A stretch of DNA of 24,000 bases from an uncultured Geobacter sp. (GCA_937860145.1 CALMBF010000155.1:123719-147718); one strand, 5' to 3'; numbered from the stretch's first letter, positions 2 to 19,074 are shown. Notes: generated by a model from the letters alone, not told the origin. Numbers and translations: made by a program.

Positions 2-823
2 GTCATGCACAAGGGGGTCGAGTATCTGGAAGTTGTCCGGGCAGCCCGCTTCGGTTACGGCAAAGGGATGAACCCCTGCATCGACTGCCGGATCTTCCTG
101 CTGCGCAAGGCACGGGAGTACATGGTGGAGAGCGGGGCCGACTTCGTCATCACCGGTGAGGTGCTCGGCCAGCGCCCCATGAGCCAGCGCCGGGACACCC
201 TGAATATCATCGAGAAGGAGAGCGGTCTGGAAGGGCTTTTGCTCCGTCCGCTGTCTGCCAAGCATTTCACCCCGACCATTCCGGAGCGGGAAGGGTGGGT
301 GGACCGGGAGAAGCTGTTGGCCATGTCGGGACGCTCCCGCAAGGAACAGATCCATCTGGCCGATGAGCTGGATGTAAAGAACTATCCCTGTCCGGCCGGT
401 GGCTGCCTGCTGACCGAACCTGCTTTCGTGCCAAAAGTGAAGGATATCTTCGACCACTCTGCCGGGCTCAATGTCCGCGATTTCCGCTTGCTGAAACTGG
501 GACGCCATTTCCGCATCGGTCCGGATACCAAGGTGATTATTGCCCGTAACGAGGCTGAGAACCATCTTCTGGAGGGGGCCGTTCAGAGCGGAGAGGCGGT
601 ATTCCAGTGGCTGGAGGGGGGAAGCCCGGTCGGCGTGGTCATGGGGCATGTTGACGAGGCGCTGCTTGCTACTGCCGCCTCGATTCTCCTCCGCTACACC
701 AGGGCCCCGGCGGGCCGCAGCTGCCAGCTGCAGGTTACGGTAGACGGTGAGCAAAGGGAGTTTTCCCGGGTCAATACGTTCGAGGAAAAGGATATTGAAC
801 CGTATCGTGTCGGCGCGTCGTAA
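2..823 (+). CDS. PP-loop ATP pyrophosphatase, ThiI/MnmA-like tRNA sulfurtransferase family (5' end outside window)
   Basis: The frame is open from the window edge. Motifs NPCIDCR, ITGEVLGQRPMSQ, LRPLS and YPCPAGGCLL resemble PP-loop thiolation enzymes. TAA stop at 821-823, followed by a terminator. Confidence 0.6.
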   Translation, partial: VMHKGVEYLEVVRAARFGYGKGMNPCIDCRIFLLRKAREYMVESGADFVITGEVLGQRPMSQRRDTLNIIEKESGLEGLLLRPLSAKHFTPTIPEREGWVDREKLLAMSGRSRKEQIHLADELDVKNYPCPAGGCLLTEPAFVPKVKDIFDHSAGLNVRDFRLLKLGRHFRIGPDTKVIIARNEAENHLLEGAVQSGEAVFQWLEGGSPVGVVMGHVDEALLATAASILLRYTRAPAGRSCQLQVTVDGEQREFSRVNTFEEKDIEPYRVGAS

Positions 824-840
824 CAGCCATCCTTCGCAAC

Positions 841-876
841 AAAAAAGCCCCCGTGATTTTCATGGGGGCTTTTTTG
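841..876. terminator. Bidirectional intrinsic terminator between convergent genes
   Basis: aaaaaAGCCCCCgtgattttcatGGGGGCTttttt: a GC stem flanked by an A-run and a T-run, between the + CDS ending at 823 and the - CDS ending at 918. Confidence 0.85.
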
Positions 877-917
877 TCGGGTAACCGTGAACCGTTCTCT
901 TCACATGCCTATCGGTA

Positions 918-2459
918 TCAGACCGCCAGTTGTTCGGGATCGGCTGCCGGTCCGCTGTCGTGATAACGATCGTCGGTGATATAGGCGTACGGATCTTTCT
1001 CGTACCACTCGGCCCGGTACGGCAGCGGGGCATTCCCCAAGAGCCGCTGCTGGTAGGAGCGGTTGAGCAGATGCTTGGCAGATCGGCGCGCCACCTCGAA
1101 TGTCCCCTTGTACCCCAGATAGGTCTGCGGTGTCGCATACAGCGGGATGCAGGGCACGCCGAGCTTTGCAACCCAGGAGTTGCTGCCGCCATGGCCGACG
1201 TACAGGTCAGGCTTGGTCCTGTTGATCAGGTTCACCAGTTCGAATACCTGGGCCGTGGCCACGTTTACCTCCAGGTCCGGGTTGTCGCCTGCCGCCCGGA
1301 GATACAGGTCATCACCGAACTGGTCGTAATGGTGGGCCCTGAAGCCGATCACATTGGCGCCGAGCTCGTGGTAGAGCATTGCCATGGTGGCAACCCGCAT
1401 TTCCCCACCGCCGAGATAGACCCGCTTCCCCTTGATTATCTCGCAATAGCGGGCAATCCCCTTTTCCAGGGCGGCCTCTTCTGCGGCGATGAGCCGTTTG
1501 GCCTCTTCTTCCAGGCCGAAGTGGGCGGCGATCTTTTCCAGCCAGAGTGCGGTGTTGCGGATGCCGATGGGCATGGTATCGATGATGTAGGGTATGCCGT
1601 GTTTCTCCTTGAGGAAATCGAGAAAATAGTCATCATGGGTGGCGCAGATACTGACGTTCAGTGCAGCTTTGGTGATGTCGCGGAAGCTCTGTTCGTCGGA
1701 AAAGTGGGGGTAGACCTGCACCTTGAGCCCCAGGGCGCTTAGCAGCCGCTCCAGCTCGATCTCGTCGGGGCGGCCGATGGAGACGGCGTTGAACAGGTTG
1801 ACGGTCCGTTTGGCTTCTTCGTCTCGGATCTTTTGCTCACCTTCGTCCAGGTTCAGCTCCCTGGGGATGAAGTCGAGGAAACGGGCAAGACCGTGGTAGG
1901 CGGCATCGTATCCGGTGGCGGAGATGTGGGTGCGGAAGCCGGCGCAGTGCACCGGGACGACTCGGGCAGCCACCTGGGGCTGGACTTTGGCGGTTACTCC
2001 GTCCACATCGTCGCCAATGATGGCCGGGGTACAGGTGGTGATGATGAAGATGAGCTCCGGGCGATGACGGCGGTCGGCCTGGATGATGGCCGCGGCCAGT
2101 TTCTCCTCGCCGCCGTGGACCACGTCCGATTCGTCCAGGTTGGTGCTCCCCCAGATGATCCGGTCCTGTACCCGACCACGGGCTTTCTGGCCGATGCGGA
2201 ACATGCCGTCGAACTGTTGCAGCGAGCCGCCGCAGCCGGGGGGCGAATGCATCAGGACGTAGGCACCCGGGATGGTGCCGATGATGGTGAGCGCCAAGTT
2301 CATCTGGCAGCCGCCCGCCTGGGAGAAGGAGCGGCCGCTGTTCTGCAGGCAGCCGCCGCGGGAGCTCTTCACGAGCCCGTCGGAACAGCCGCCGTAGGCG
2401 TTACAGGTGCGCAGCCGGTTTTCCCTGACAGGGAGGACTTTCTGATCGGTATAAGCCAT
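918..2459 (-). CDS. Nitrogenase-like component 1 alpha-type subunit (NifD/NifE-like), paralog alpha3, 513 aa
   Basis: Start moved to the ATG at 2459, preceded by AGGAGA; the N-terminus MAYTDQKVLPVRENR aligns with the paralog at 17346. Motifs HSPPGCGG, TTCTPAIIGDD, VHCAGFR and SICATHDDY..KHGIP align to NifD C88, C154, the CEGFR region and C275. Confidence 0.9.
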   Translation of the reverse strand: MAYTDQKVLPVRENRLRTCNAYGGCSDGLVKSSRGGCLQNSGRSFSQAGGCQMNLALTIIGTIPGAYVLMHSPPGCGGSLQQFDGMFRIGQKARGRVQDRIIWGSTNLDESDVVHGGEEKLAAAIIQADRRHRPELIFIITTCTPAIIGDDVDGVTAKVQPQVAARVVPVHCAGFRTHISATGYDAAYHGLARFLDFIPRELNLDEGEQKIRDEEAKRTVNLFNAVSIGRPDEIELERLLSALGLKVQVYPHFSDEQSFRDITKAALNVSICATHDDYFLDFLKEKHGIPYIIDTMPIGIRNTALWLEKIAAHFGLEEEAKRLIAAEEAALEKGIARYCEIIKGKRVYLGGGEMRVATMAMLYHELGANVIGFRAHHYDQFGDDLYLRAAGDNPDLEVNVATAQVFELVNLINRTKPDLYVGHGGSNSWVAKLGVPCIPLYATPQTYLGYKGTFEVARRSAKHLLNRSYQQRLLGNAPLPYRAEWYEKDPYAYITDDRYHDSGPAADPEQLAV

Positions 2460-2526
2460 GGTGGTCTCCTTTCGTGGTCTTGCAATCTGTCCGTTAGTTG
2501 GAAGTTGCCGGAATGAGCGCATTAGG

Positions 2527-2636
2527 GCTATTTCGTCGAAATTCCTGCGAATGAAGCGTTAACAGTCGATGTTGTTTGAGCCCGTAGGGCGAGTTCATCG
2601 ACTGTAGCGAAATGAGCATGGAATTACAGAAATAGC
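2527..2636. repeat. About 110-nt imperfect inverted repeat (long stem-loop) in the beta3-alpha3 intergenic gap
   Basis: GCTATTTC (2527-2534) pairs with GAAATAGC (2629-2636). ACAGTCGATG (2562-2571) pairs with CATCGACTGT (2596-2605). Apical hairpin GCCCgtaGGGC at 2580-2590. Confidence 0.6.
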
Positions 2637-2683
2637 ACGTCAGCGCGAATGCAGGCGGCTTGCAACTGCCGCACTCCTCATCC

Positions 2684-4024
2684 TTATCGGCCCGGGATCG
2701 CGAACGACATCAGATCTTCCGCCAGGCTGAGGCCCCCACGATAACCGGCATACCCTTTGTTCATCACCACGCGGTTGTTGAGCGGAAAGCTGATCCCCAG
2801 GTGGCGGGCGCCGATGTTGGCGGCCAGTTCCCCTTCGATGGTGCTTCCCAGGATATAGGCCGGGCTAAAGATAGGCGCGTAGCGGTTGCCATCGGTAGCC
2901 GGCCAAAGTCTGGCCAGGTGGGCCGGGATCTGCCCCGCATCGGTTTCGAAGATGATCGTCGGCTGATAGCCGGACTCCAGGCGGTCGTAGCCGTCTATAA
3001 CCGCTGCGTGAAACTGTTCGTCCAGTCCGTCGCTCACCACCGCCAGATCGGTCAGCCAGCCCAGCTCTTCATTGAGAAAGCGGGTTATGGGGAGGGTTGT
3101 GGTGGCATTCCCCACCACCGCGGCATAGAACTGCATGTCTACATCGGTGAACAGGTCGCTCGAGCGTTCGAAGATGCGGTAGTAGAGATCATTTTCCCTG
3201 GCGATGACTGCTTCGGTGGCTTGCGGGTCAAGCCCAAGGGCGGCAGTCACCTCCCGCAGGAAACGGGCGGTGGCCACTGCCCCCACCGGCAGATCCACGA
3301 CTTTGAACGGGGTGGCGAAGCGTTCCTCGAACGTTCTGGCCGGGTCCACGCCATAAGCACGGGATACGACCAGATTGGCCGCTGCCGCCGGTGCACTCCG
3401 CAGGTTGTCCAAGGTTTCGTCCGGGGCGAATAAGGTGTTGACCTCCAGCCCCAGAAGCCCCAGCAGGCGCTTCAGCTCAAGCAGATCACCACGGAAAAAC
3501 GGGTCCTGACCCGGTACCAGTCCCCAGAGGTTGACGAGGCGGGTGTTTATCTCCGCTGCTGGCTTGAGGTAGTGGCGGAAGAGCCCGTCCAGCAGGAGAT
3601 CATACCCCTTGTAGGAGTTCCCCTTGAAACCGCCGGTCTCGATGCCGATCACCGGTATGCCGTTGTCCCGGTGCTCCTGGACCACCGACTGAATGTCATC
3701 GCCGATGATGTCGGTCATGCAGGCCGACACCACCACGTAGAGCTCGCCGTCCATCAGCTCATGGGTGGTGCGGATCTGCTCGCTCAAGCGGTCGCTGCCA
3801 CCGAACACCACCTCATTCTCGACGATGTTGGAGCCGGGGAGCGACGTGCCGCCGCAGTAGCCGGCCCCGTAAAAGCCGCTGCCGGCATAATGGGCCATGT
3901 GCAGGTTGCCGCCGCAGCCGCCGGAGCCATGAATGATCGGGATGGCTTTCGGCAGTGAGGTGATGGCGCTGAGCGCCCCTCCCAGGGCGCAGGTGAAGCG
4001 GGGGTGATCGATAGGGGTACTCAT
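2684..4024 (-). CDS. Nitrogenase-like component 1 beta-type subunit (NifK/NifN-like), paralog beta3, 446 aa
   Basis: Motifs FTCALGGAL, IIHGSGGCGG and SACMTDIIGDD match the three NifK P-cluster cysteine contexts. GGAGGA RBS before the ATG at 4024. Close paralog of 19075..20412. Confidence 0.9.
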   Translation of the reverse strand: MSTPIDHPRFTCALGGALSAITSLPKAIPIIHGSGGCGGNLHMAHYAGSGFYGAGYCGGTSLPGSNIVENEVVFGGSDRLSEQIRTTHELMDGELYVVVSACMTDIIGDDIQSVVQEHRDNGIPVIGIETGGFKGNSYKGYDLLLDGLFRHYLKPAAEINTRLVNLWGLVPGQDPFFRGDLLELKRLLGLLGLEVNTLFAPDETLDNLRSAPAAAANLVVSRAYGVDPARTFEERFATPFKVVDLPVGAVATARFLREVTAALGLDPQATEAVIARENDLYYRIFERSSDLFTDVDMQFYAAVVGNATTTLPITRFLNEELGWLTDLAVVSDGLDEQFHAAVIDGYDRLESGYQPTIIFETDAGQIPAHLARLWPATDGNRYAPIFSPAYILGSTIEGELAANIGARHLGISFPLNNRVVMNKGYAGYRGGLSLAEDLMSFAIPGR

Positions 4025-4051
4025 AAGTCCTCCGGTGCAGGTTGAAGTCTG

Positions 4052-4723
4052 TTAGTGAATTGCGCCAAAATCTGTTTCCAGTAGCACCATTCCCGGTGCA
4101 ATCTCGATAAACGAATCGCCGTCCCACGGGCCGTTGACGACCCGCCGCAACCATGCGTCGCGGCCGCCTATGGTCAGGAATTCCAGCCCCAGCAGCCCAG
4201 CCAGTTCGCGGCCGGTTGCCAGGTGCGCTGTTTCCCTGGGATGGCCGGTATGAACGAAAACAATGCGCCGGTAGGCATCGAACATGGTGGCCATCACCCG
4301 TTTTGCCTTCTGCTCGCCATATTTTTCCCGTACGCGCCGGTATTCGGAAAATACGGTCCGCTCCCCCTCCAGCCAGCCGCCGGAGAGGAAATAAGTCCCC
4401 TTTTCCTCACGGAGGAGTTCTTCATGGGTGTACCGGGACCCAAGGAGGAGCGGGATGCAGTCGTGGGCTCTCGGAATGAACAGCGGTATCCCTGGCGCAG
4501 TCAGTCCTGCCACCGCCCCGCCGCAGAGGCCGAAAGCCAGCACCACCCGGTCTCTACCAGTGGCGCTGGCAAGAACCGCGCGTAACTCCTCCCGCAGTTT
4601 GTCCGGCCAGCGGTGCAGCCCCATGGAGACAAAGTGGAAGATGACCGGGTGTGTCGGCGTTATTGCCAGAAGTTCTTCCTTCATGACGTCGCAGGCAATG
4701 ATGTGGGTAGGTGCGTCAGGCAT
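4052..4723 (-). CDS. DUF1638 domain protein, 223 aa
   Basis: The pattern IIACDVMKEEL...GLH..P..L...FGLCGG...AHDC...LGS...FLSGGW is typical of DUF1638. It lies 27 nt upstream of beta3 on the same strand. Confidence 0.7.
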   Translation of the reverse strand: MPDAPTHIIACDVMKEELLAITPTHPVIFHFVSMGLHRWPDKLREELRAVLASATGRDRVVLAFGLCGGAVAGLTAPGIPLFIPRAHDCIPLLLGSRYTHEELLREEKGTYFLSGGWLEGERTVFSEYRRVREKYGEQKAKRVMATMFDAYRRIVFVHTGHPRETAHLATGRELAGLLGLEFLTIGGRDAWLRRVVNGPWDGDSFIEIAPGMVLLETDFGAIH

Positions 4724-4755
4724 AAACAGTCATATCCGTTGTTGGTATGTGGAAA

Positions 4756-4807
4756 CAAAAAAACCGGAGATCTCCTGTGCGCACGTCACGCAGGGACCTC
4801 CGGTTTT
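4756..4807 (-). terminator. Intrinsic terminator after metK
   Basis: On the minus strand: AACCGGAG..(28 nt)..CTCCGGTT followed by TTTTTTT (the A-run at 4756-4763 on the plus strand). Confidence 0.7.
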
Positions 4808-4874
4808 CCGGTTGGCATGATTTCTCGATAAATTGTGTCGATTACACGTACAGCTCTCTGCACATATGGTGACT

Positions 4875-6056
4875 TCAGGCCAGCCTTGCAGCCCGGTCGA
4901 TGCGCTCCCAGGGGAGATCCAGGTCGTTCCTGCCGAAGTGGCCGTAGGCGGCGGTCTGGCGGTAGATGGGGCGGCGCAGGTCGAGCTGCTCGATGATGGC
5001 CGCCGGGCGGAGGTCAAAATTATCCCTGATGATCAGGGCGAGCTGTTCGTCCGACACCTTGCCGGTGCAGAATGAGTCGACGAACACCGCCACCGGCCGG
5101 GCCACGCCGATGGCGTAGGCGATCTGGATCTCAACCCGCGACGCCAGTCCGGCGGCAACCAGGTTCTTGGCCACGTAGCGGGCGGCATAGGCACCGGAGC
5201 GGTCCACCTTCGTGGGATCCTTGCCCGAGAAGGCACCGCCGCCGTGTCGGGCCACGCCGCCGTAGCTGTCGACGATGATCTTGCGGCCGGTGAGGCCGGC
5301 GTCGCCGTGGGGGCCGCCGACGACGAAGCGACCGGTGGGGTTGATGAAGAAACGGGTCTGGTTGTCCAACAGGTTCGCCGGGATCACCGGCTTGACGATA
5401 CGCTCGATGACGTCGCCGCGGATCTGCTCCAGCTCCACGTCGGGAGCGTGCTGGGTGGAGATGACCACCGTGTCGATCCGTGTCGGCGTGCCGTTTTCGA
5501 ACTGCACCGTCACCTGGCTCTTGCCGTCGGGGCGGAGGTAGCCGATTTCCCCTGATTTTCTGGCCGAGGCCAGCTTGCGGGTCAGGCCGTGGGCCAGGTG
5601 GATGCTGGTGGGGAGGTAGGCATCGGTCTCGTCGGTGGCGTAGCCGAAGACCATTCCCTGGTCACCGGCGCCGACGGAATCGAGATAGCCGTCATGGTCA
5701 ATGCCGGAGCGCTGCTCCAGGGCCGAGTTGACCCCTTGGGCGATATCGGGCGACTGCTGGTCAAGGGAAACCAGGACGGCACTGTGTTCGGCATCGAGCC
5801 CCAGTTCCGAGTTTGTGTAACCGACTTCAGTTATTGCGTCCCGGGCGACGCGAACGGCGTTGATCTGGGCAGTGGCCGAGGTCTCGCCGATGACGACGAC
5901 CAGGCCGGTGGTGACGCTGGTTTCGCAGGCGACGCGGGCAAGGGGATCTTTGTCGAGAAAAGCGTCGAGGATCGAGTCGGAGATGAAATCCGCCAGTTTG
6001 TCCGGGTGCCCTTCGGTGACCGATTCTGAAGTGAAGAGGTAGTTATGTGCCGGCAT
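4875..6056 (-). CDS. metK: S-adenosylmethionine synthetase, 393 aa
   Basis: [23 protein letters not shown]..., GAGDQG and the [11 protein letters not shown] motif. Start set at the ATG at 6056 with an AAGGAG RBS; the longer track ORF to 6347 covers the leader region. Confidence 0.95.
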
Positions 6057-6107
6057 TGCTGCTCCTTTCTGGTGATACCTTGAGTCGCATCCATGGTCTA
6101 TTCGCAT

Positions 6108-6165
6108 AAAAAAAGGCCAAGCAGGGTAGTGCATCCCGACTTGGCCTCCAGTGTGTCTGGTGGAA
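6108..6165 (-). promoter_or_regulatory. metK 5' leader: motif copy A (CCAGacacaCTGG-A-GGCCAAG...CTTGGCC-U7), candidate riboswitch or attenuator with an intrinsic terminator
   Basis: Read on the minus strand: cacaacggttccaCCAGacacaCTGGAGGCCAAGtcGGGatgcactaCCCtgCTTGGCCttttttt, ending 52 nt upstream of the metK ATG. Confidence 0.6.
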
Positions 6166-6223
6166 CCGTTGTGAATGTTCGAAGTGTGTCCGATCAATAT
6201 TTTCTGTGACCGTAGCAATTTAA

Positions 6224-6255
6224 ATCTTGACTTGTCAAGATAAAAAATATATATC
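6224..6255 (+). promoter_or_regulatory. Sigma70-like promoter (TTGACT-N15/17-TATATA/TATATC) overlapping the 18-bp palindrome ATCTTGACttGTCAAGAT
   Basis: TTGACT at 6227-6232 and TATATA at 6248-6253. The palindrome at 6224-6241 places TTGAC on both strands between divergent metK and the tautomerase operon. Confidence 0.5.
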
Positions 6256-6286
6256 CTACAAAAAATGTAGTTTATAACTGTCGCTC

Positions 6287-6333
6287 GCTGACCAGAGAAC
6301 TGGAGGCCGGAAAATCTTTTTCCGGCCTTTTTT
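6287..6333 (+). promoter_or_regulatory. Leader motif copy B (GCTGA-CCAGagaaCTGG-A-GGCCGG...CCGGCC-T6) upstream of the tautomerase gene
   Basis: It lies downstream of the predicted promoter and 35 nt upstream of the GTG at 6368. No plus-strand gene upstream needs a terminator here. Confidence 0.6.
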
Positions 6334-6367
6334 CGTTTCACAATCATACATCACAAAGGAGAGAAGC

Positions 6368-6556
6368 GTGCCGATTGTATCCATCGATTTTGGTTCAAAG
6401 CTGTCGAAAGAGCAGAAACAGGCCGTTGCCAAAGGGGTCACGGGGACGATTGCCGCGGCGACGGGCGTTCCGCAAGAGTCGGTCATCGTCATCATCAATG
6501 AGGTGGACAGGGATAATATTGCCAAGGCCGGGGTGCTGTTTTCCGACCGCACATAA
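6368..6556 (+). CDS. 4-oxalocrotonate tautomerase family protein, 62 aa
   Basis: GTG start with an AAGGAGAG RBS. N-terminal Met-Pro (MPIVSI...), the size and the ...KEQKQAVAKGVT... pattern are typical of the 4-OT family. Confidence 0.75.
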   Translation: MPIVSIDFGSKLSKEQKQAVAKGVTGTIAAATGVPQESVIVIINEVDRDNIAKAGVLFSDRT

Positions 6557-6579
6557 TTCAGCTGACAGGAGGATTGGAT

Positions 6580-8082
6580 ATGTTGAAACGAATAGTATCG
6601 GGAATAGTCGGCGTCATTGCCATCGCTGCCTCTGCATTCGCTGCCGACGTGACACTGAAGAGCCGGCTCGATCCGGTGATTGACCGTGCCATCAAGGATG
6701 AGCGGATTGTCGGCACGGTCGTTCTGGTCGCCAGGGATGGAAAACTGATTTACAAAAAGGCGGCCGGACTTGCCGATCGCGAGGCCAGGCGACCCGTGAC
6801 CCTGGATACGCAATTCCGTCTGGCGTCCCTGACCAAACCGATCGTTGCCGCGGCAACGGTTGCCCTGGCCGATGCGGAAATCTTCCGGCTCGACGATCCG
6901 GTGACCAGATGGTATCCGGAGTTCAAGCCGAAACTTGCCGACGGCAGGGAGCCGGATGTGACGGTTTATCAGCTGCTCTCCCACACTGCCGGACTCGGGT
7001 ACGGTTATCTGGAGTCAGGCAAAGGCCCTTACCACCAGGCCGGAGTATCCGACGGCTTCGACCGTTCCGTACCGTCACTGGACGAGAACCTGAAACGCCT
7101 TGCCAAGGCGCCGCTGCTTTATGAGCCGGGCACGGGCTGGTCCTATTCCATTGGCTACGAACTGCTCGGCGGGGTTCTTGAAAACGCCGGCAAGGGTAGA
7201 CTGCCCGCGGTTTTGCAGCGGACGGTGACCAAGCCGCTCGGTCTCAAGGCAACAACATTCACCCCTGCTGACAAGAAGCGCGTCGCTGCCCAGTACGCCT
7301 TTGCCATTCCGCGGCCGAAGCGTCTGGCCGACAGCGACACCATTGACGTCGGCAAGAGTCCGCTCCCTGTTGCTCCCGGCCGTGTCTTCGACCGGAAGGC
7401 CTACCCGTCTGCAGGCGCCGGTCTGGTCGGTACCGCAGAAGACTATCTCAAATTCCTGGAAGCCATCCGTCAGGGCGGAACACCGATTCTGGACAGTGCG
7501 GCGGTCTATTCGTTTACGACCAATTCCCTCGGGCTGATTACTTCACCAGCCCTGGGCAAAGGCTGGGGATACGGCTACGGCGTGGCGGTCCTGAAGAACC
7601 AGGGACTGGCGGAGTCGCTGCACGGTGTGGGGACCTGGCGGCTCAGCGGTGAATACGGCAGCCACTTCTGGGTGGATCCGCAGGCCGGTCTGACCGTGGT
7701 CGTGTTGACCAATACCGCCGGCGCCGGGACCCAGGAGCGCTTCAGTGACGACATCACCCGGGCGGTGTACGGCCCGGAGCGGAAGATAGCTCAGCCGACC
7801 GTCGACGGTATCCCCGTCACCACTGTTGTCGAGGGGAAAGCCTATAAATTCGTCCCCGAGGCAGTCAATGCGGCCAGTTTCAGCATCGCCAACAAGCCGT
7901 CCTGGGCCGCTTTCGACGCTGCCAGCGGCGCCCTGACCGGCACGCCGAAGACAGAAGATGTTGGCACCTACGGCGACATCGTGATCACCGCCACCAACAG
8001 CAGTGGTTCAGCGTCTCTCCCCGGCTTTGCCTTAACCGTCGCACCCGTTCCGCCGCCGGCCGCACCGGTAGCCGCAAAATAG
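6580..8082 (+). CDS. Secreted serine hydrolase (beta-lactamase/class C-like esterase family) with a C-terminal Ig-like domain, 500 aa
   Basis: ATG at 6580, 7 nt after AGGAGG. Signal-peptide-like N-terminus; SxxK motif ASLTKP; the C-terminal roughly 90 aa (KPSWAAFDAASGALTGTP...GTYGDIVITATN) looks like a bacterial Ig/cadherin-like repeat; Pro/Ala tail. Confidence 0.8.
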   Translation: MLKRIVSGIVGVIAIAASAFAADVTLKSRLDPVIDRAIKDERIVGTVVLVARDGKLIYKKAAGLADREARRPVTLDTQFRLASLTKPIVAAATVALADAEIFRLDDPVTRWYPEFKPKLADGREPDVTVYQLLSHTAGLGYGYLESGKGPYHQAGVSDGFDRSVPSLDENLKRLAKAPLLYEPGTGWSYSIGYELLGGVLENAGKGRLPAVLQRTVTKPLGLKATTFTPADKKRVAAQYAFAIPRPKRLADSDTIDVGKSPLPVAPGRVFDRKAYPSAGAGLVGTAEDYLKFLEAIRQGGTPILDSAAVYSFTTNSLGLITSPALGKGWGYGYGVAVLKNQGLAESLHGVGTWRLSGEYGSHFWVDPQAGLTVVVLTNTAGAGTQERFSDDITRAVYGPERKIAQPTVDGIPVTTVVEGKAYKFVPEAVNAASFSIANKPSWAAFDAASGALTGTPKTEDVGTYGDIVITATNSSGSASLPGFALTVAPVPPPAAPVAAK

Positions 8083-10658: not shown

Positions 10659-12857
10659 GTGCATCCAGTGTATCTTGACTACAATGCAACTACTCCGGTT
10701 GACCCCCTGGTGGTTGATGAGCTGCTCCCCTGGTTGCAGGAAGGGTTCGGCAATCCATCCAGTAATCACCCGTACGGCCAGCGTGCCAAACATGCAGTGG
10801 AGCAGGCTCGTTCGCGGGTGGCGTCACTGCTTGGCGCGCATCCGGCGGAGATTATATTTACCAGCGGTGGTACCGAGGCAAACAATCAGGCGCTGATCGG
10901 GGTTGCCCTGGCCAACTGCGAGCGGGGTCGGCATATCATCACGTCGTCCATTGAACACCCGGCAGTCCTGAATCCGCTCCACTGGCTGGAGGGGCAGGGG
11001 TTCAACATCACCTATCTCCCCGTGGACAGCTCCGGACGGGTAGATCCGGAGACGTTGCGCCAGGCCATCACCTGCGAGACAATTCTCGTCAGCGTGATGC
11101 ATGCCAACAACGAGGTGGGGACTATCCAGCCGCTGGCCGAGATCGGCGCCATCGCCCGGGAACACGGCATTCTGCTGCACACCGATGCCGCCCAGTCGGT
11201 GGGGAAGATCCCGACGAGGGTGGATGAACTGGGGGTGGACCTGCTGACCATTGCCGGCCACAAGTTTTATGCCCCCAAGGGGATCGGCGCCCTCTATGTG
11301 CGCACGGGGGTGAAGATTGATCCCTACCTGCATGGCGCCGGACACGAAGGGGGCCGTCGGGCGGGGACCGAAAACGTCCCCTATATCGCCGCACTGGGTA
11401 AGGCGGCAGAACTGGCGGGCCAGCGGTTGGCCAGCGAAGGGGAGCGCATTCGTGAGCTGCGGGACCGCTTCCATGCCCGGCTGAACGAACTGGTTGACGG
11501 GGTCCTGCTGAATGGCCACCCCACCGAGCGCCTCCCCAACACTCTCAACATCAGCTTCAGCGACGTGGTCGGGGCTGATCTGCTGTCCCGTATTCCGGAG
11601 ATGGCCGCTTCCACCGGTTCGGCCTGTCATGACGGCAGCGGCGAGCTGTCCGGCGTGCTCAAGGCCATGGGGGTGCCACGGGAGCAGGGTTTCGGCGCCA
11701 TCCGCTTCAGCCTCGGCCGGCTTACCACCGCCGAGGAGCTGGAACGGGCAGCAGAGCTTGTTGCGACCAGGGTCAGGGAAATTCGCGCCATCCGGGGTGG
11801 TGTTTCCCATAATCACGTTCAGACCGGGCTCTCCGCCCTGGCTTCCTGCGCCGGTTGAGCGGCCAAGATAAGTCCTCAGGACCTGGCTCAAGTTTTGAGT
11901 CAGCTACCAAGCATTACCGACCCGAATGTACTCATCGGCACCAAAACCGCCGATGATGCCGCCGTTTACCGTGTGAACGATGATCTGGCCATCGTGCAGA
12001 CGGTGGACTACTTTACTCCGGTGGTGGACGACCCCTATCTGTTCGGCCAGATTACCGCTGCCAACTCCCTGTCCGATATCTATGCCATGGGGGCTACGCC
12101 TCTCTTTGCTCTGAACATAGCCGGGTTTCCATCCGATACGCTTCCCTTGGATGTTCTGGCCAGGATTCTCCAGGGGGGTGCTGACAAGGCGGCGGAAGCA
12201 GGCATCAGCATCATCGGCGGCCATACCATCAAGGATGCGGAGCCGAAATACGGCATGGCGGTCACCGCGGTGATCCATCCCGACCAGGTGATCAGTAACG
12301 CCGGGGCCAAACCGGGTGACCGGCTGATCCTCACCAAGCCGCTGGGAATCGGGATTATTACGACTGCCATGAAAAGCGGCAAGGTTACAGAAAAGACCGT
12401 TGCCGAAGTTGTCGCTGTCATGGCGAGTCTGAACAGGAGTGCCGCAGAGGCGATGGTTGTGGTCGGAGCCCATGCCTGCACCGACGTGACCGGTTTCGGA
12501 TTCCTCGGCCATCTTTCCGAAATGGTCCGTGGAAGCGGCGTCGGCGCGGTGATCAGCGTGTCGAGGGTGCCGGTGCTGGAAGAGGCCTGGAGTCTGGTGC
12601 GTGAGGGGATTGCTCCGGGCGGCAGCCGACGCAACCTGGAATTTTTGCGCGACCGGCTCACGGTAGAAACGGGTGTCAGCGAAGAGGAGCTGCTTGTCCT
12701 GGCCGATGCCCAGACCTCTGGCGGGTTGCTGATAGCATTGCCGGCAGACGACGTTGACCGGTTAGAGACGGAACTTGCCGGACGGGGTGTGACAGATGTT
12801 GCCGAAATCGGCGAGATTGTGGCCGATCCCGACAGCCGGATCACCCTGAGACCCTAG
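10659..12857 (+). CDS. selD: NifS-like cysteine desulfurase/selenocysteine lyase fused to selenophosphate synthetase; in-frame UGA (Sec) at 11856-11858; 732 aa
   Basis: GTG after AAGGAGG. The N-terminal domain has the PLP Lys context GHKFYAPKG and the active-site motif GSAC. Reading through the TGA gives ...SCAG-U-AAKISPQDLAQVL..., matching the SelD G-x-G-C/U-x-x-K-I-S-P active site. The rest is SelD-like (DDAAVY, VDYFTP, TDVTGFG). Confidence 0.8.
11859..11899 (+). other. Candidate SECIS-like stem-loop immediately 3' of the UGA
   Basis: GCCAagataaGTCCtcaGGACcTGGC at 11862-11887, followed by CTCAAgttTTGAG at 11887-11899. Confidence 0.4.
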
Positions 12858-12868
12858 GGATATCAGAC

Positions 12869-13645
12869 ATGGCAACCGGCTTGCAACTGGGCACCCTGTT
12901 CATGCTCGGCATGTCCGGAGGGTTTTTGTCCGGACTCCTGGGCATTGGCGGCGGCATTGTCATGCTGCCGCTCCTCATATCGCTGCCACAGTTAACGGGT
13001 TTTTCCATCGGTCTCCGTCCGGCTGTCGGGATTACCATGCTCCAGAGCCTGAGTGGATCCCTGTCGGGCATGCTGATCCATCGCAGGCACGATGTCTTCG
13101 ACGTTCCCCTTGCCCTCACGGTAGGGGTGTGCGCCGCTGCCGGATCAATGGGGGGAGCTCTCTTTTCCAGCCTGGTGAGTGAGCGGTGCATGGCGATCCT
13201 TTTTGCCGTGATGGCGTTAACAAGCCTGCTGCTTCTGCTCTTACCCGAATCCGGGGAGTTGCCATCAACTGATAGCACATGCCCGAAGCGCTTTCCTGCC
13301 GCATCGCTGCTGGGGGGTGGTGTCGGTTTTTGTGCCGGGATCATCGGCCAGGGGGGCGCATTCATCATCCTTCCCCTCTTGATTCATCTGCTGAAGGTAC
13401 CGGTGCGGACGGCAATCGGTACGACCGTCGCAGTCTCGTTTTTATCCGCAGCTGCCGGATTCATCGGTAAATGGAGCACCGGACAGGTCCCCCTGCTCTG
13501 GGGAGTCGCCGTGGCATCCGGAGCGCTGCTGGGGGGGCAGCTGGGGGGTATGGTCAGCCACCGGTTATCGACAATCACCCTGCGTCGAATCCTGTTCCTG
13601 GTGGTTGCGGTCAGCATGCTGCGTATATTTGCCCACGTCCTTTAG
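12869..13645 (+). CDS. TauE/SafE (DUF81) family anion exporter-like membrane protein, 258 aa
   Basis: Gly-rich TM1 (GGFLSGLLGIGGGIVMLPLL) and an internal repeat (GIIGQGGAFIILPLL) are typical of the TauE family. Confidence 0.75.
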   Translation: MATGLQLGTLFMLGMSGGFLSGLLGIGGGIVMLPLLISLPQLTGFSIGLRPAVGITMLQSLSGSLSGMLIHRRHDVFDVPLALTVGVCAAAGSMGGALFSSLVSERCMAILFAVMALTSLLLLLLPESGELPSTDSTCPKRFPAASLLGGGVGFCAGIIGQGGAFIILPLLIHLLKVPVRTAIGTTVAVSFLSAAAGFIGKWSTGQVPLLWGVAVASGALLGGQLGGMVSHRLSTITLRRILFLVVAVSMLRIFAHVL

Positions 13646-13699
13646 AAACCTTGCGGATTGCTATTGTCAGCGTAACTGAGACGTTAGCGGAGGTACTAC

Positions 13700-14287
13700 A
13701 TGCTTCTGTGGCACATCTTCATTCTCTTTACCCGGGTATCCCTGTTCTCCTGGGGAGGCGGACCTGCCTCCCTGGCGCTGATGCAACGGGAAACCACCAC
13801 TGCCCTCTGGAAGCCACCTGGTAGTGCCTCAACGTCTCCCTGGGTAACACCCCTGGAATTTTCCGATGCCGTGGCGGTGGGGAATGCACTTCCAGGACCG
13901 ATTGCACCCCAGGTTTCCGCCTATATTGGATATAAGATGGCCGGAGTGCCGGGTGCCGTCGCTGCTGCGGCCGGGACGGTACTGCCGACGACGATACTGA
14001 TGCTGTTCATGGTGGCCTGTTTTTTTCGCATCAAGGAGAGTCTGCTGGTCCAGTCCATGCTCCGGGCCGTCCGCCCGGTGGTGGTGGGACTGCTGCTCTG
14101 GACCGCCTATGACATGGCGATAACGGTTTTCGGGGTCAAACGGCTCGGGCTTGTGCAGTCGTTCTCCCTGGGATGGGATAAGCTGCTCATTGTGGCAGTG
14201 TCGTTTGCGGTACTGACCCTGACGGAAATCAATCCGGCCCTGGTTGTTCTGGTAGCGGCCGTAGCGGGCGGCGTGGTGTACCGTTGA
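13700..14287 (+). CDS. Chromate-transporter (CHR) family half-size protein, 195 aa
   Basis: FTRVSLFSWGGGPASLALMQRE and ...GNALPGPIAPQV... resemble short-chain ChrA proteins. Only one half-size gene is present. Confidence 0.7.
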   Translation: MLLWHIFILFTRVSLFSWGGGPASLALMQRETTTALWKPPGSASTSPWVTPLEFSDAVAVGNALPGPIAPQVSAYIGYKMAGVPGAVAAAAGTVLPTTILMLFMVACFFRIKESLLVQSMLRAVRPVVVGLLLWTAYDMAITVFGVKRLGLVQSFSLGWDKLLIVAVSFAVLTLTEINPALVVLVAAVAGGVVYR

Positions 14288-14352
14288 GGAACGTCAGTCG
14301 ACAGATGCGCAGCCGGGACAAAAGAAAAGCTTGGTGAGCAGGAGGGAGTTCT

Positions 14353-15816
14353 ATGGGCAATCGTAACCTGTTACGTGATCCGATCTGGCGAGGCGATGAA
14401 CTGGGAAAGGCACTTCCCGATTCGCTCCATGCCGTCTCCGTGGCGCTGCCGCATTGGCAGGACGTGGTTGGTTATGAGGAGAAGCGGCCCGAGGTGGTCA
14501 ATCGATTGCAATGCGGCTACCCCCGCTTCGTCATTCACCGCCTGGTGCAGGATCTGGCGCGGTTTATCGCCGGTGATCGCCCCTGCCTGCCGTTCCCTTC
14601 GCAGCACACGGCGCAGCAGTGCGTGGCTTTCATTCATCGCCAGAGCGGCGTCGAAGCTCAGGTGGTCGAGCGGGACGGGCAGTATGGTGTTGCCACGACC
14701 GACAGCGGTTACGACAGCCTCAAGGCTTTCTGGCAGCATACCGGCCTGATCGTCTCCACCCGCCGGGCCCAGTCGATATTGAGCGGTATCTCGCGGGTAC
14801 AATCTGATGATCGGGAAGTGCGGGATTCTCTTCGGCGACAGCTGGCCGGGTTGTACGACTGTTCTCCCGATGACGTATTCCTGCAGCCAACCGGCATGGC
14901 GGCCATGTTTGCCGCCCTGCGGGCGGTCATGCGGCGTACACCGGGCAGGCCGACGGTGCAGATCGGCTTCCCTTATGTGGATACGCTCAAGCTGCAGGAG
15001 AAATTCGGCCACGGCGCAACCCTGCTCCATGACCTCAACCATTGTACTGAAAACCTGCGTGCCCTTCTGCAACAAGGGGCTCTAGCCGGATGCTTCAGTG
15101 AGATTCCCGGTAACCCCTTGCTCGGATCTGCCGATCTGCGCGAGATCACCCCGATCCTGCGGGAGCACGGCGTGCCGCTGGTGGCCGACGACGTTGTTGC
15201 CACACCCCTGAACGTGGACCTCGGTTCCCATGCCGACCTGATCGCCACCAGCCTGACCAAATACATTTTCGGCAGGGGGGACGTCATGGGTGGCGCCCTG
15301 ATCTGCAACCCCCGCTCTCCCTATCACATCGAGCTTAGGGCCATTGCAACATCGCTGCACGAGGAGCTTCTCTGGCTTGATGATGCCGTGGTGCTGGAAG
15401 AGCAGATCGGCAGCTTTCCGGAGCGGATGCGGGTTCACAACCGTAACGGCCTGATCATTGCCGAACGGCTTCGCTCCCATCCTGCAGTTGAACAGGTCTG
15501 GTTTCCGAAATGGTCGTTCGGCGACGCCTACGAGGCGGTGCGCCGACCCGATGGCGGGTGGGGTTCCCTGGTCACCTTTCTGCCAAAGAACGCCGAGACC
15601 GCGTCACCCCGTATCTATGACAATCTTGAAGTTTGCAAGGGCCCGAGTCTGGGAACCAGCTTTACCCTGGCCTGTCCCTTTACCCTGCTGGCCCATTACA
15701 CTGAACTGGAGTGGGCTGAGGCCTGCGGGGTGCCGCGGTATCTGATCCGGCTCTCCGTGGGGCTCGAAGATCCGGAAGAACTCTGGGGCCGGATTGTCCG
15801 GGCGCTGGAAGCATAA
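14353..15816 (+). CDS. Cys/Met-metabolism PLP-dependent enzyme (cystathionine gamma-synthase-like, long Str2-type form), 487 aa
   Basis: The PLP-lysine context SLTKYIFGRGDVMGG, plus an N-terminal extension of roughly 100 aa with HAVSVALPHWQDVVGYEE. AGGAGG RBS. Confidence 0.75.
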   Translation: MGNRNLLRDPIWRGDELGKALPDSLHAVSVALPHWQDVVGYEEKRPEVVNRLQCGYPRFVIHRLVQDLARFIAGDRPCLPFPSQHTAQQCVAFIHRQSGVEAQVVERDGQYGVATTDSGYDSLKAFWQHTGLIVSTRRAQSILSGISRVQSDDREVRDSLRRQLAGLYDCSPDDVFLQPTGMAAMFAALRAVMRRTPGRPTVQIGFPYVDTLKLQEKFGHGATLLHDLNHCTENLRALLQQGALAGCFSEIPGNPLLGSADLREITPILREHGVPLVADDVVATPLNVDLGSHADLIATSLTKYIFGRGDVMGGALICNPRSPYHIELRAIATSLHEELLWLDDAVVLEEQIGSFPERMRVHNRNGLIIAERLRSHPAVEQVWFPKWSFGDAYEAVRRPDGGWGSLVTFLPKNAETASPRIYDNLEVCKGPSLGTSFTLACPFTLLAHYTELEWAEACGVPRYLIRLSVGLEDPEELWGRIVRALEA

Positions 15817-15905: not shown

Positions 15906-15955
15906 CGATATAAGTAATAGACATTATCGTTTATTTTGCCGAACAAAATATTTCA

Positions 15956-16000
15956 GCTGACCAGATAACTGGAGGCCAGGATTTTTCCTGGCCTTTTTTT
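15956..16000 (+). promoter_or_regulatory. Leader motif copy C (GCTGA-CCAGataaCTGG-A-GGCCAGG...CCTGGCC-T7)
   Basis: It lies about 45 nt downstream of the predicted transcription start and about 115 nt upstream of the Nfu start, in a leader-terminator arrangement. Confidence 0.65.
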
Positions 16001-16114
16001 GTTCATGACAGCTGCTGGAGACTGTAGAACTTAGTTCATGATTGAAGTTGTACATCAACAGGAGCTATACAACTTCAAGTGAATAAACGCATTGCCGATA
16101 GGGAGGATGAATAC

Positions 16115-17171: not shown

Positions 17172-17248
17172 CAGGGATGGATACATCTGGACTGCCTGGC
17201 TGATCTGATGATGGTCTGATGCGATAAAGTAATGGGTAATATTTTTGT

Positions 17249-17314
17249 GCTGACCGGCAAAGCCGGAGGTGCCTGATGCGCATGTGCGCATGGCCCTCCG
17301 GCTTTTCTTTTTTT
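17249..17314 (+). promoter_or_regulatory. Motif copy D (GCTGA-CCGGCaaaGCCGG-AGG) merged with a strong intrinsic terminator, between the methyltransferase and alpha1
   Basis: AAGCCGGAGG (17260-17269) pairs with CCTCCGGCTT (17295-17304), with an inner ATGCGCAtgTGCGCAT, followed by TTCTTTTTTT. The alpha1 RBS follows 20 nt later. Confidence 0.65.
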
Positions 17315-17345: not shown

Positions 17346-18875
17346 ATGGGATTGAAAGAAGACCGGGTTGTCCCCGGCAGGGAAGACCGGGTAGCGGCCT
17401 GCATGGCCTATGGCGGCAGCGCCTGCAGTATCGGCGGCGAAAGCAAGGCATGTCTGAAGAACAGCGAGCGGGGTTTTTCCCAGGCCGGCATCTGCCAGCT
17501 ACTGCCGACCTTGGGGATGCTCCTGACCCTGCCGGATATTGCCGTGATCATCCATGGCGCCATCGGCTGCGGTTCTGCCGGGTTCGGTATGAATGTCAGT
17601 ATTCGCCTGCATCATCTGCTCCGCGGCAATCCCAATGCCAAGGACAGCCTATGGTTCAGTACCAACCTGGATGAGGCGGATGTGGTGCATGGCGGCGAAC
17701 AGCGGCTGGAGGAGACTATCCTCACTGTAAACGAACGCTACAAACCGAAATCCATCGTCGTGGTGCAGACCTGCACCCCGTCCATCATCGGCGATGATCT
17801 CGTGGGGGTGGTGGAAAAAGTCCGGCCGCTGGTGGAGGCCAACATACTCTATGCCCACTGCGAAGGGTTCAAGACCAAGGTCTGGGCCACCGGCTATGAC
17901 GTGGCTTTTCATGCCATGATTCACGGTTACATAGAAAAGGACAAGGAGGGGCCGCCGCCACGAAAAGCCCCCTGGCAACCGGGACAGCGGCCGACGGTCA
18001 ATGTCATCAACCTGGCCTCCGTCGGCAAGCCGGACGAGGAGGAGATCGAACGGCTCCTCAATGCCATCGGCATCGATGTGACCATCGGCCCCAACTTCGC
18101 CGACCGGGAAAAGGTGCGGCAGCTGACTCAGGCCGACCTGACGGTCAGCATCTGCCCGACCCATGACGACTACCTGGTCGATTACCTGCACACCGAGTAC
18201 GGCATCCCCTTCGTCCTGAAGGACATGCCGATCGGCCTGGAGAATACCCGCAACTGGTTGCTGGATATTGCGGGCAAATTCGGTCTGGAAAAGGAGGCGC
18301 TGGCCCTGATAGAGGCCGAGGAGGCCAGGGCGCGCACAGCGGTGGAGCGCTTCCTTCCCGTGCTGAAGGGGATCCGGGTATTTCTCTCCGCCGGTGAGTT
18401 CCGGGCGCTGGTTACCGGCGGGCTGTTCCAGGAGCTGGGGATGGAGATCGTCGGGGTACGCTCCTACCACCATGACGAGTTCGGCACCGATTTCTACGGC
18501 CGGCTGGTAAACGGTCAGCAGGGGAAGGACTTCCCGGTGGATATCGCCAATTTCCAGCCCTTCGAACTGGTCAATCTGTTGCAGCAGGTCAAGCCGGACC
18601 TCTTTGCCGGCCATATCTGGGACAACGCCTGGGCCGCCCGCCTCGGCTATCCCACCATCACCATCTTCCGCATCTTCGACTACTACGTCGGCTACCGCGG
18701 TTTCTATGAAGTGGCAAAAAAGGCGGCCCGCATCCTGCGCAACCATTCGTTCAATGCCAATCTGAGCAGAAACGTTACCGATGCCTACCGCCCGGAGTGG
18801 TATGAGCAGAACGCTTTCAAATACATCAAGTCAGGGCTGCCTGAGGGTCTGCAATCGGATACAGCTGCAGTGTAA
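17346..18875 (+). CDS. Nitrogenase-like alpha-type subunit (NifD/NifE-like), paralog alpha1, 509 aa
   Basis: ATG at 17346 after GGAGAGAGG. Motifs IHGAIGCGS, QTCTPSIIGDD, AHCEGFK and SICPTHDDY..EYGIP. Collinear with alpha3. Confidence 0.9.
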   Translation: MGLKEDRVVPGREDRVAACMAYGGSACSIGGESKACLKNSERGFSQAGICQLLPTLGMLLTLPDIAVIIHGAIGCGSAGFGMNVSIRLHHLLRGNPNAKDSLWFSTNLDEADVVHGGEQRLEETILTVNERYKPKSIVVVQTCTPSIIGDDLVGVVEKVRPLVEANILYAHCEGFKTKVWATGYDVAFHAMIHGYIEKDKEGPPPRKAPWQPGQRPTVNVINLASVGKPDEEEIERLLNAIGIDVTIGPNFADREKVRQLTQADLTVSICPTHDDYLVDYLHTEYGIPFVLKDMPIGLENTRNWLLDIAGKFGLEKEALALIEAEEARARTAVERFLPVLKGIRVFLSAGEFRALVTGGLFQELGMEIVGVRSYHHDEFGTDFYGRLVNGQQGKDFPVDIANFQPFELVNLLQQVKPDLFAGHIWDNAWAARLGYPTITIFRIFDYYVGYRGFYEVAKKAARILRNHSFNANLSRNVTDAYRPEWYEQNAFKYIKSGLPEGLQSDTAAV

Positions 18876-18909
18876 ATATACCTGATGACTATCAATTCTT
18901 CCGTAAATT

Positions 18910-19013
18910 CCTTCTCCCTCAGGGAGAAGGTGGCCTCAGGCCGGATGAGGGTGGTAACAGTGCCATTATGCACCATTTCCCCCTCACCCTAGCCCTCTCC
19001 CTCAGGGAGAGGG
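18910..19013. repeat. REP-like element: inverted pair of CCYTCTCCC-tca-GGGAGARGG hairpins in the alpha1-beta1 gap
   Basis: Hairpins at 18910-18930 and 18993-19013, plus GGCCtcaGGCC at 18932-18942. The two halves are approximately reverse-complementary. Confidence 0.65.
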
Positions 19014-19074
19014 GACTCTGTATAAGCTGTAGTGGCAGGTACGATTAAATTAATTACCAAGGAGTAACATCCAT

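Follow-up and report, generated by a model that had tools for sequence, protein, structure and literature searches.

Most Group IV nitrogenase-like (NFL) enzymes have no known substrate and belong to hosts without genetic tools (Chem Rev 2026, PMC13474568). The closest described systems are the methylthio-alkane reductase MarBHDK of Rhodospirillum rubrum (structures 9fmg and 9d9u) and the marBHDK1, marKD2/marHB2 and nflDK3 genes of Rhodopseudomonas palustris. In the latter organism one pair, named marKD2, is in K-D order, some pairs (e.g. nflDK3) are without their own H and B genes, and all NFL genes are upregulated under sulfur limitation (bioRxiv 10.64898/2026.08.20.746119). Related genes are found at the type 1 mlp clusters, in which an MtaA-like URO-D protein, a corrinoid protein and a RamA-type activase are encoded in or near MarHDK-like, sulfur or selenium genes (PMC10418091); the mlp-linked homologues are called group IV-A in that work, and Mar is IV-C in PMC13474568. 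Here, we describe a 24,000-nt stretch of an uncultured Geobacter sp. (GCA_937860145.1 CALMBF010000155.1:123719-147718), hereafter the window. On its minus strand, between positions 918 and 4723, a DUF1638 gene heads a nitrogenase-like pair in beta-alpha order (beta3 and alpha3, or K3 and D3) downstream of metK, and a small hairpin motif overlaps the terminator in the leader of this operon and of others.

Members of the DUF1638 family are linked to corrinoid chemistry. In Phaeobacter inhibens, the DUF1638 protein PGA1_c13340 and a RamA-like protein are needed for a split B12-dependent methionine synthase (PMC5764234), and in Ruegeria growing on methylated amines DUF1638 is co-induced with RamA; MetH of Geobacter is also without a reactivation domain (PMC545781). 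Regarding RNA leaders, the nif genes of Geobacter sulfurreducens are controlled by GnfK/GnfR, an ANTAR system whose RNA site overlaps a terminator and whose binding blocks terminator formation (PMC2995071). Furthermore, the aptamer of the HMP-PP (thiS motif) riboswitch is embedded in a terminator (PMC6478431), and S-box elements are known from Geobacter at metIC and metX (PMC545781).

The order metK, hairpin, DUF1638, beta3, a 224-nt gap and alpha3, proposed in an earlier sequence-only reading of this DNA, was confirmed by open reading frame (ORF) listing, Pfam and BLASTP (coordinates in Table 1). We hold with moderate confidence, and as one explanation, that positions 918-4723 are a three-gene operon, DUF1638-nflK3-nflD3, in a Geobacteraceae island for methyl-sulfur (possibly methyl-selenium) salvage, and that the metK-DUF1638 hairpin is the leader attenuator of the operon itself. 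The hairpin is more than a metK terminator because the same element is present before DUF1638 where metK is missing, and before other operons. It folds at −34.4 kcal/mol (z −5.8), is followed by U7, and its stem begins with the 3′ strand of the motif. As the sequence-only reading had stated, about 30 nt (30-34 nt) separate the U-tract from the DUF1638 start codon. The promoter scan was empty there, and the ribosome-binding site (aacggatatgactgtttATG) is weak; the sites of beta3 (GGAGG) and alpha3 (GGAG) are strong.

Orthologues of the DUF1638 leader precede DUF1638 in three relatives (loci L097, L098 and L099) and a URO-D/DUF1638 pair in a fourth (L017). In L097 and L098 there is no metK ahead of the element, and the upstream gene is divergent. 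After the leader, L098 and L099 continue with DUF1638 and a beta3 orthologue (90-94% identical), as in the window, and L097 shows the same DUF1638 start up to the end of its contig. The order in L017 is metK, motif, URO-D, DUF1638, membrane protein, K3 and D3, and its metK is in turn preceded by the same motif-plus-terminator arrangement. Within the window, four further copies stand before other genes (Table 1), and the alpha1 leader (17252-17314) aligns with the metK-DUF1638 hairpin, flanks included; most operons of the window appear to belong to one regulon.

The exact hairpin sequence, CCGGAGGTSCCTG, was found on this contig only, and the family was recognised after the pattern had been relaxed beyond it. 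The regular expression [AG]AC[CT][GA]G-N3-6-C[CT]GGAGG, run over 1.6 Mb of loci, gave 71 matches, compared with about 3 (1-6) in shuffled sequences; besides the five copies of the window, about 50 are present in related loci. The consensus is 5′-R Y Y (R A) C Y R G [A-rich loop 3-6 nt] C Y G G (A) G G Y-3′. It describes a 7-bp hairpin interrupted by a 2x1 internal loop, in which only about 10 positions are invariant and three unpaired bases are conserved. Base pairs were counted on 48 distinct copies. The inner helix (P1b) is 100% paired, and its variable pair is AU in 27 copies, GC in 20 and GU in one, with no mismatches; the end pair of the outer helix, which lies outside the regular expression, is GC in 31, AU in 8, GU in 4, CG and UA in one each, and unpaired in 3. 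Overall, 98.5% of the cells are paired, and the observed pairing or covariation was matched in 0/500 shuffles. Furthermore, the tandem copies of L077, which were outside the seed, present new compensatory pair types (UCAG/CUGA and CUGG/CCAG).

The motif core ends at a median of 76 nt from the start codon and is always oriented as the downstream gene. The motif and an intrinsic terminator downstream of it (median −22 kcal/mol) overlap in 40 of 44 copies, the 5′ arm of the latter starting within the 3′ strand of the former, and several leaders carry tandem copies. L098 has a TTGACA-N17-GATAAA promoter about 30 nt ahead of the motif, next to a divergent gene, and TTGACA-N17 promoters are at the same distance in L019, L027 and L028; given these promoters just upstream, the motif is a 5′ leader device. 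It combines a structured, covarying leader element with an expression platform that would compete with it, as in riboswitches.

With a covariance model of the motif (R1), the five copies of the window scored 24-37 bits and the rest of the window at most 12.7 bits. Among loci outside the seed, scores above 22 bits were obtained only for L022, L023, L034 and L077, each with nif-like genes; loci without such genes gave only two weak matches of about 20 bits, in L076 and L060 (E 0.005-0.009). Of the 80 genome loci, 30 have nif-like genes and 19 of these carry the motif, vs one of the 50 others (Fisher p = 8e-10); when matches found by the model alone are added, about 24/30 carry it. It spans two phyla, Desulfuromonadota and Bacillota. 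Among 43 first downstream genes, the most frequent encode NifB-like radical SAM proteins (7), URO-D (4), Oxidored_nitro (4), NifX-like (4) and DUF1638 (3) proteins; NifH-like, MetK, NifU, a corrinoid protein, a cysteine synthase-type PALP protein, a cysteine desulfurase and a molybdate-type MFS transporter occur once each. The only genes enriched in motif-bearing loci were nif-like genes, their antisense shadow ORFs, a methyltransferase and DUF2325.

The DUF2325 protein (about 95 aa) is encoded first after the motif, and directly upstream of an NFL alpha gene, in Sporomusa and other Bacillota (L003 5614-5901, L027 5717-6001, L029 5683-5970 and L077 about 14282-13990, minus strand), often after two tandem copies; its enrichment in motif-bearing loci is mild (6 vs 2). 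A separate observation concerns Geomesophilobacter sediminis (L035), the single locus free of nif-like genes in which several copies of the motif occur (391, 2326, 4915 and 5716); these copies may extend the regulon beyond NFL genes.

A search with Rfam 15, including all S-adenosylmethionine (SAM) classes, the PyrR site and the T-box, found nothing at gathering score in the 24 kb, and on the leaders nothing relevant at E 5-10 or below. A known RNA family was thus dropped as an account of the hairpins and of the metK leader. No description of the motif was found in the literature on riboswitches of nitrogenase-like genes or of Geobacter metK, although one elsewhere is possible. Leader-peptide attenuation, with GGAGG of the window copies as the Shine-Dalgarno sequence of a short ORF, was discarded on the basis of the start codon position, which varies in L017 and L019.

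Compared with the described leader systems, the motif resembles the GnfR site: both are conserved RNA sequences of nitrogenase-gene leaders, placed just ahead of an intrinsic terminator and overlapping it. ANTAR targets consist of two tandem hexaloop hairpins, whereas the motif is a single 7-bp hairpin with a loop of 3-6 nt, occurs also in Bacillota, and is found in loci where no ANTAR gene was seen. The GnfR/ANTAR site itself, CAGGCAANGGCGCC, is absent at the five leaders, and its five matches with 2 mismatches elsewhere are near chance level; this candidate was rejected. With the HMP-PP and S-box (SAM-I) riboswitches the motif shares its small size, its fusion with the terminator, its regulon-wide position before sulfur and methionine genes including metK, and the tandem arrangement of some copies. 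However, it has no match in sequence or structure with any Rfam 15 family, the SAM classes included, and any ligand of it is a putative one. Since Geobacter uses the S-box for metIC and metX, the signal of the motif is probably not simply SAM.

Then, we considered the enzymes. An all-against-all BLASTP divided the six nitrogenase-like proteins of the window into three of alpha type and three of beta type. Alpha3 is 42% identical to the protein starting at 17346 and 34% to that starting at 20425, and beta3 is 43% and 36% identical to those starting at 19075 and 21897, respectively. The best solved relative of alpha3 is MarD of R. rubrum (9fmg_A/9d9u_A, E 3e-62; next match 4e-29) and that of beta3 is MarK (9d9u_C, E 1e-79; next match 4e-28), far ahead of true nitrogenases, NifEN and DPOR. 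The cluster ligands are kept: C51, C76 and C143 of alpha3 align with the P-cluster cysteines of MarD, Cys272 and His423 with the ligands of its L-like cluster (Cys270 and His429), and Cys12, Cys37 and Cys102 of beta3 with MarK cysteines at P-cluster ligand positions. None of the NCBIfam nif, vnf, anf, bch and cfb models matched any of the six proteins at its cutoff. Accordingly, we class them as uncharacterised Group IV NFL proteins of the Mar kind.

As in R. palustris, several paralogous pairs lie amid sulfur-metabolism genes. The resemblance to MarDK of R. rubrum is distant, and the host belongs to the Geobacteraceae and is not a purple bacterium. Moreover, the window pair is headed by DUF1638, without marB or marH at its side, and its control is apparently exerted by an RNA leader element; in R. 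palustris, the NFL genes respond to sulfur limitation. The window and the 39 kb of contig covered yielded no NifH-like (MarH) or NifB-like (MarB) gene; relatives of the window locus do carry such partners nearby.

The sequence-only reading had also pointed to the beta-before-alpha order, which is real: the minus-strand pair is beta-alpha and both plus-strand pairs are alpha-beta. It is not peculiar to this locus, and K-D order is already known from marKD2 of R. palustris. When the NFL proteins of the fetched loci were searched, all eight closest relatives of alpha3 were in K-D order (L017 at 91% identity, the Bacillota loci L025 and L032 at about 52%, then L024, L044, L033, L030 and L007). D-K order is found in the alpha1/beta1 clade (Geomonas subterranea, Sporomusa and Pelosinus) and also in the alpha2/beta2 clade, which forms radical SAM-D-K units. 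As these relatives indicate, the beta-alpha order is a trait of the whole alpha3/beta3 clade. The alpha3 start was placed at 2459, and not at 2522, the start of the longest ORF, on the basis of the onset of paralogue homology and of the GGAG ahead of it; this start gives the 224-nt gap after beta3. The gap neither aligns with the matching gaps of L017 (152 nt) and L007 (about 40 nt) nor contains any copy of the motif by R1, and a conserved element at this site was dropped.

The DUF1638 protein of the window scores 124.6 bits against a Pfam cutoff of 27 (PF07796), and its closest named relatives are from Geomonas and Geotalea (Geobacteraceae). In a 32-sequence alignment, residues C11, H37, C67, H87, D88 and C89 are invariant or nearly so, which suggests a putative metal or Fe-S site. 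The AlphaFold (AF2) model has a pLDDT of 90, and a comparison of it with the PDB gave no solved structure with matching fold.

The sequence-only reading held the pairing of DUF1638 with a nitrogenase-like enzyme to be unusual and suggested its co-occurrence across genomes as a check. The co-occurrence was found, and the pairing is a common one: NFL genes lie within 10 kb of DUF1638 at 23/39 loci of at least 45% identity (adjacent in 7 of these), vs 4/41 loci below 45%. In these relatives, DUF1638 is placed among MtaA-like URO-D, corrinoid-protein and RamA-type genes and NFL pairs with NifB- and NifX-like genes; in Geomonas the order is NifX-like, URO-D and DUF1638, divergent from NifB-like-D2-K2. 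Just left of window position 1, a convergent operon encodes MtaA/CmuA-type URO-D, NifX-like and flavodoxin-like proteins. PGA1_c13340 of P. inhibens belongs to the same Pfam family, and genetic evidence links it to methionine synthesis and corrinoid methyl transfer, but the clade of the window protein adjoins nitrogenase-like and MtaA-like genes and not MetH pieces.

The gene set of the type 1 mlp clusters recurs in the Sporomusa, Pelosinus and Heliobacterium loci. It is incomplete at the window, where one adjoining MtaA/CmuA-type URO-D gene was found, and full in the Firmicutes relatives; the Geobacteraceae loci present no corrinoid protein or activase within 10 kb of DUF1638, and phmmer queries with the Sporomusa corrinoid protein and activase had no match in the two window-contig loci searched (L001 and L005). 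DUF1638 is a constant member here, whereas it is not named as a component in PMC10418091, which does not mention the leader motif either. The co-occurrence of DUF1638 and NFL genes is one face of the mlp/MarHDK-like association described by Kountz and Balskus. The window has selD as well: between the NFL clusters (10659-15816, plus strand) there are a cysteine desulfurase/selenocysteine-lyase-like gene, selD, TauE, a chromate-transporter-family gene and a Cys/Met pyridoxal-phosphate enzyme. Selenium and NFL genes are thus together in one island, whereas Kountz and Balskus found the selenium clade of mlp clusters to be separate from the NFL-linked clade (PMC10418091).

On this basis, we propose the following mechanism. 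K3/D3 would be the catalytic part of a Group IV nitrogenase homologue of the Mar kind, served by a NifH-like reductase and a NifB-like maturase encoded elsewhere, and would reductively cleave a C-S (or C-Se) bond of a small organic sulfur compound. DUF1638 may act as an accessory protein of MtaA-like (URO-D) corrinoid methyltransferase systems, moved here to the head of the K-D pair; its relatives keep NifX-like/URO-D/DUF1638 operons beside the NFL enzymes. Intrinsic termination depends on those stem base pairs that adjoin the U-tract. The AGGY of the small hairpin, on its 3′ strand, also belongs to the base of the terminator, and when a metabolite or an RNA-binding protein stabilises the hairpin, no terminator would form beside the U-tract and transcription would proceed into DUF1638-K3-D3; without stabilisation, it would stop. 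Indeed, the 7-bp hairpin is far weaker than the terminator, so the leader alone should terminate and the hairpin should need stabilising. Transcripts from the metK promoter would meet two of these elements one after the other, first in the metK leader and then in the DUF1638 leader. As far as the leader sequences indicate, conditional antitermination with an ON-type logic is thus the most likely control of expression. The same logic applies to ON-type riboswitches whose aptamer is part of the terminator (HMP-PP class) and to antiterminator proteins such as GnfR.

We put forward only tentatively that the motif serves as aptamer in a new class of very small riboswitches of ON type, placed in a terminator and sensing a metabolite that signals need for, or supply of, NFL C-S/C-Se cleavage. 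Jointly with it, and equally tentatively, a candidate cross-phylum riboswitch regulon would include Mar-like enzymes, maturation genes of NifB-, NifX- and NifH-like type, MtaA-like methyltransferases, DUF1638 and metK. The span of two phyla, the tandem copies and the absence of an enriched regulator gene lean towards a riboswitch; the small size and the sequence-conserved helices lean towards a protein-dependent antiterminator, which we consider somewhat more likely.

A sigma-70 consensus scan of positions 800-6700 found no site, with the caveat that Geobacteraceae promoters are poorly modelled by this consensus, and the 62-nt spacer from the metK stop to the motif showed no convincing promoter by scan or by eye; a sigma-70 promoter at this site was dropped as a candidate. 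The divergent promoter region between the metK and tautomerase-operon leaders is conserved between the window and L097, including ATATATTTTTTATCTTGACAAGTCAAG...TAAATTGCTA.GGTCA. In L097 (5813-5905) this region has the tautomerase gene on one side and the DUF1638 leader on the other, metK being missing, and in the window the metK leader, metK and the DUF1638 leader come after it. On the simplest account, metK and its own leader copy belong to an ancestral transcription unit, and transcription reaches DUF1638-K3-D3 through regulated read-through of the second element, the transcripts most likely starting at the metK promoter. The read-through from metK suggested by the sequence-only reading is thus plausible and has comparative support from the promoter homology of L097, but its assumption that the hairpin is simply the metK terminator does not stand. 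Because a conserved leader motif overlaps the terminator, any read-through is most likely regulated antitermination and not leakage. Constant leakage past a plain metK terminator, with no dedicated regulation of DUF1638-beta3-alpha3, would agree with the missing promoter-like site and the weak ribosome-binding site after the hairpin, and with the metK-hairpin-operon synteny of L017. It is nonetheless improbable: leakage past a hairpin of this strength (−34 kcal/mol, U7) should be small, the conserved element precedes DUF1638 where metK is missing (L097 and L098) and heads many other operons, and a covarying small hairpin that overlaps the terminator would have no role.

Independent transcription from a weak promoter in the 62-nt spacer, as in L098, with the element as a 5′ attenuator and little contribution from metK, deserves more weight, and we judge it possible though doubtful. 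The motif has its own TTGACA-N17 promoter in L019, L027, L028 and L098, and the flank ATCATGCCAACCGG is common to the window, L099 and L098; on the other hand, the window presents TAATCG at the −10 position of L098 and no TTGACA-like −35, the consensus scan was empty, and metK transcripts would reach the same hairpin anyway, so the same decision would apply to them. It could also be argued that the element does not act as RNA, being a DNA operator for a transcription factor or a repeat of the repetitive extragenic palindromic (REP)-like type with chance terminators. The motif is short and its CCGG core self-complementary, multicopy intergenic sequences abound in Geobacter genomes (PMC2700814), and a REP-like palindrome is present in the 18876-19074 gap. 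Such an element is very unlikely, however: the motif keeps a constant orientation and a median distance of 76 nt to the start codon, retains pairing by compensatory changes (CCAG/CUGG, CUAG/CUGG and UCAG/CUGA), stands in a fixed register with the terminator in 40/44 cases and is conserved from Desulfuromonadota to Bacillota only beside nif-like genes.

Several points weigh against the regulated-leader operon that we favour. All loci were gathered via DUF1638, which biases the picture of the regulon, and neither ORF clustering nor enrichment in motif loci revealed a regulator gene in cis. It is the geometry of the leader that suggests an antiterminator role for the small hairpin, and in so tiny a motif a small-molecule pocket is not assured. 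A weak promoter within the 62-nt spacer is possible. Regarding the enzymes, identity to the characterised MarDK is low, so the substrate class of K3/D3 is a putative one. Finally, no corrinoid protein or RamA-like activase is encoded within the 39 kb of contig covered; with these and the NifH- and NifB-like genes missing there, the functional link between DUF1638 and K3/D3 is one of gene neighbourhood.

Table 1. Features of the window discussed in the text (positions counted from its first letter; R1, covariance model of the leader motif).
Feature	Position	Strand	Evidence and remarks
Bidirectional intrinsic terminator, operon end	838..880	both	A-tract, GC hairpin, U-tract; picked up via the terminator half of Thr_leader
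alpha3 (NflD/MarD-like), 513 aa	918..2459	-	Oxidored_nitro E 5e-78
beta3-alpha3 intercistronic gap, 224 nt	2460..2683	-	moderately structured, fold z −2.7
beta3 (NflK/MarK-like), 446 aa	2684..4024	-	Oxidored_nitro E 2e-62
DUF1638 protein, 223 aa	4052..4723	-	PF07796, E 4.6e-36
DUF1638-operon leader: motif core 4813-4797, terminator hairpin and U7 4811-4753	4753..4821	-	R1 28.8 bits, E 4e-7
metK, S-adenosylmethionine synthetase, 393 aa	4875..6056	-	three S-AdoMet_synt Pfam domains
metK leader: motif (CAC variant) 6162-6145, with overlapping terminator, U7	6108..6170	-	R1 26.0 bits, E 3e-6; fold −24.9 kcal/mol
Divergent promoter region, metK leader / tautomerase-operon leader	6171..6281	.	palindrome TTGACAAGTCAA; highly conserved with L097
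Motif and terminator before tautomerase/beta-lactamase-like/methyltransferase/EamA operon	6282..6338	+	R1 33.3 bits; terminator-like site 6302-6330
Motif and terminator before NifU-like gene and methyltransferase	15951..16001	+	R1 37.3 bits
Motif and terminator 30 nt before alpha1 (start 17346)	17244..17314	+	R1 23.9 bits; fold −37.2 kcal/mol

Other features of the contig were recorded beside these. The palindrome TTGACAAGTCAA of the AT-rich conserved region could be an operator for a regulator of both divergent operons. The alpha1-beta1 gap (199 nt, 18876-19074, plus strand) contains REP-like palindromes, CCCTCAGGGAGAAGG...CCCTCTCCCTCAGGGAGAGGGG, and no copy of the motif. A fourth alpha/beta pair is located on the same contig about 7.5 kb past window position 24000 (L005 19520-21317), near Rrf2, DUF2292 and NosL-domain genes and a motif-like site without a U-tract (L005 19439). 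The metK start is at 6056, with AGGAG 8 nt upstream. The JGI metagenome contig Ga0209725_1000015 matches the window with a 1-nt deletion in metK (ATCCAGATCGC vs ATCCAATCGC; window about 5124, L001 about 9600), and metK is called there as two genes; this difference probably reflects an error of assembly, or else the same organism assembled a second time.

Taken by itself, the gene content of the locus is of known kinds, i.e. Mar-like NFL paralogues and an mlp/DUF1638 neighbourhood. The new point is a covarying, terminator-overlapping leader motif, absent from Rfam, that marks an NFL regulon across phyla, metK included. A shared leader element of this kind defines an NFL regulon by sequence, with DUF1638 and the MtaA-like methyltransferases among its members, and would provide a handle on the signal that induces NFL genes, be it the ligand of a riboswitch or an antiterminator protein. 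For genome annotation, hairpins like the one after metK should not be taken as plain gene-end terminators. The element would also join methyl transfer by corrinoid systems to C-S cleavage of the nitrogenase type, as one controlled pathway of widespread anaerobes (Geobacteraceae, Sporomusa, Pelosinus and heliobacteria), and, if the riboswitch proposal is true, its ligand would point to the physiological substrate or product of the uncharacterised Group IV homologues.

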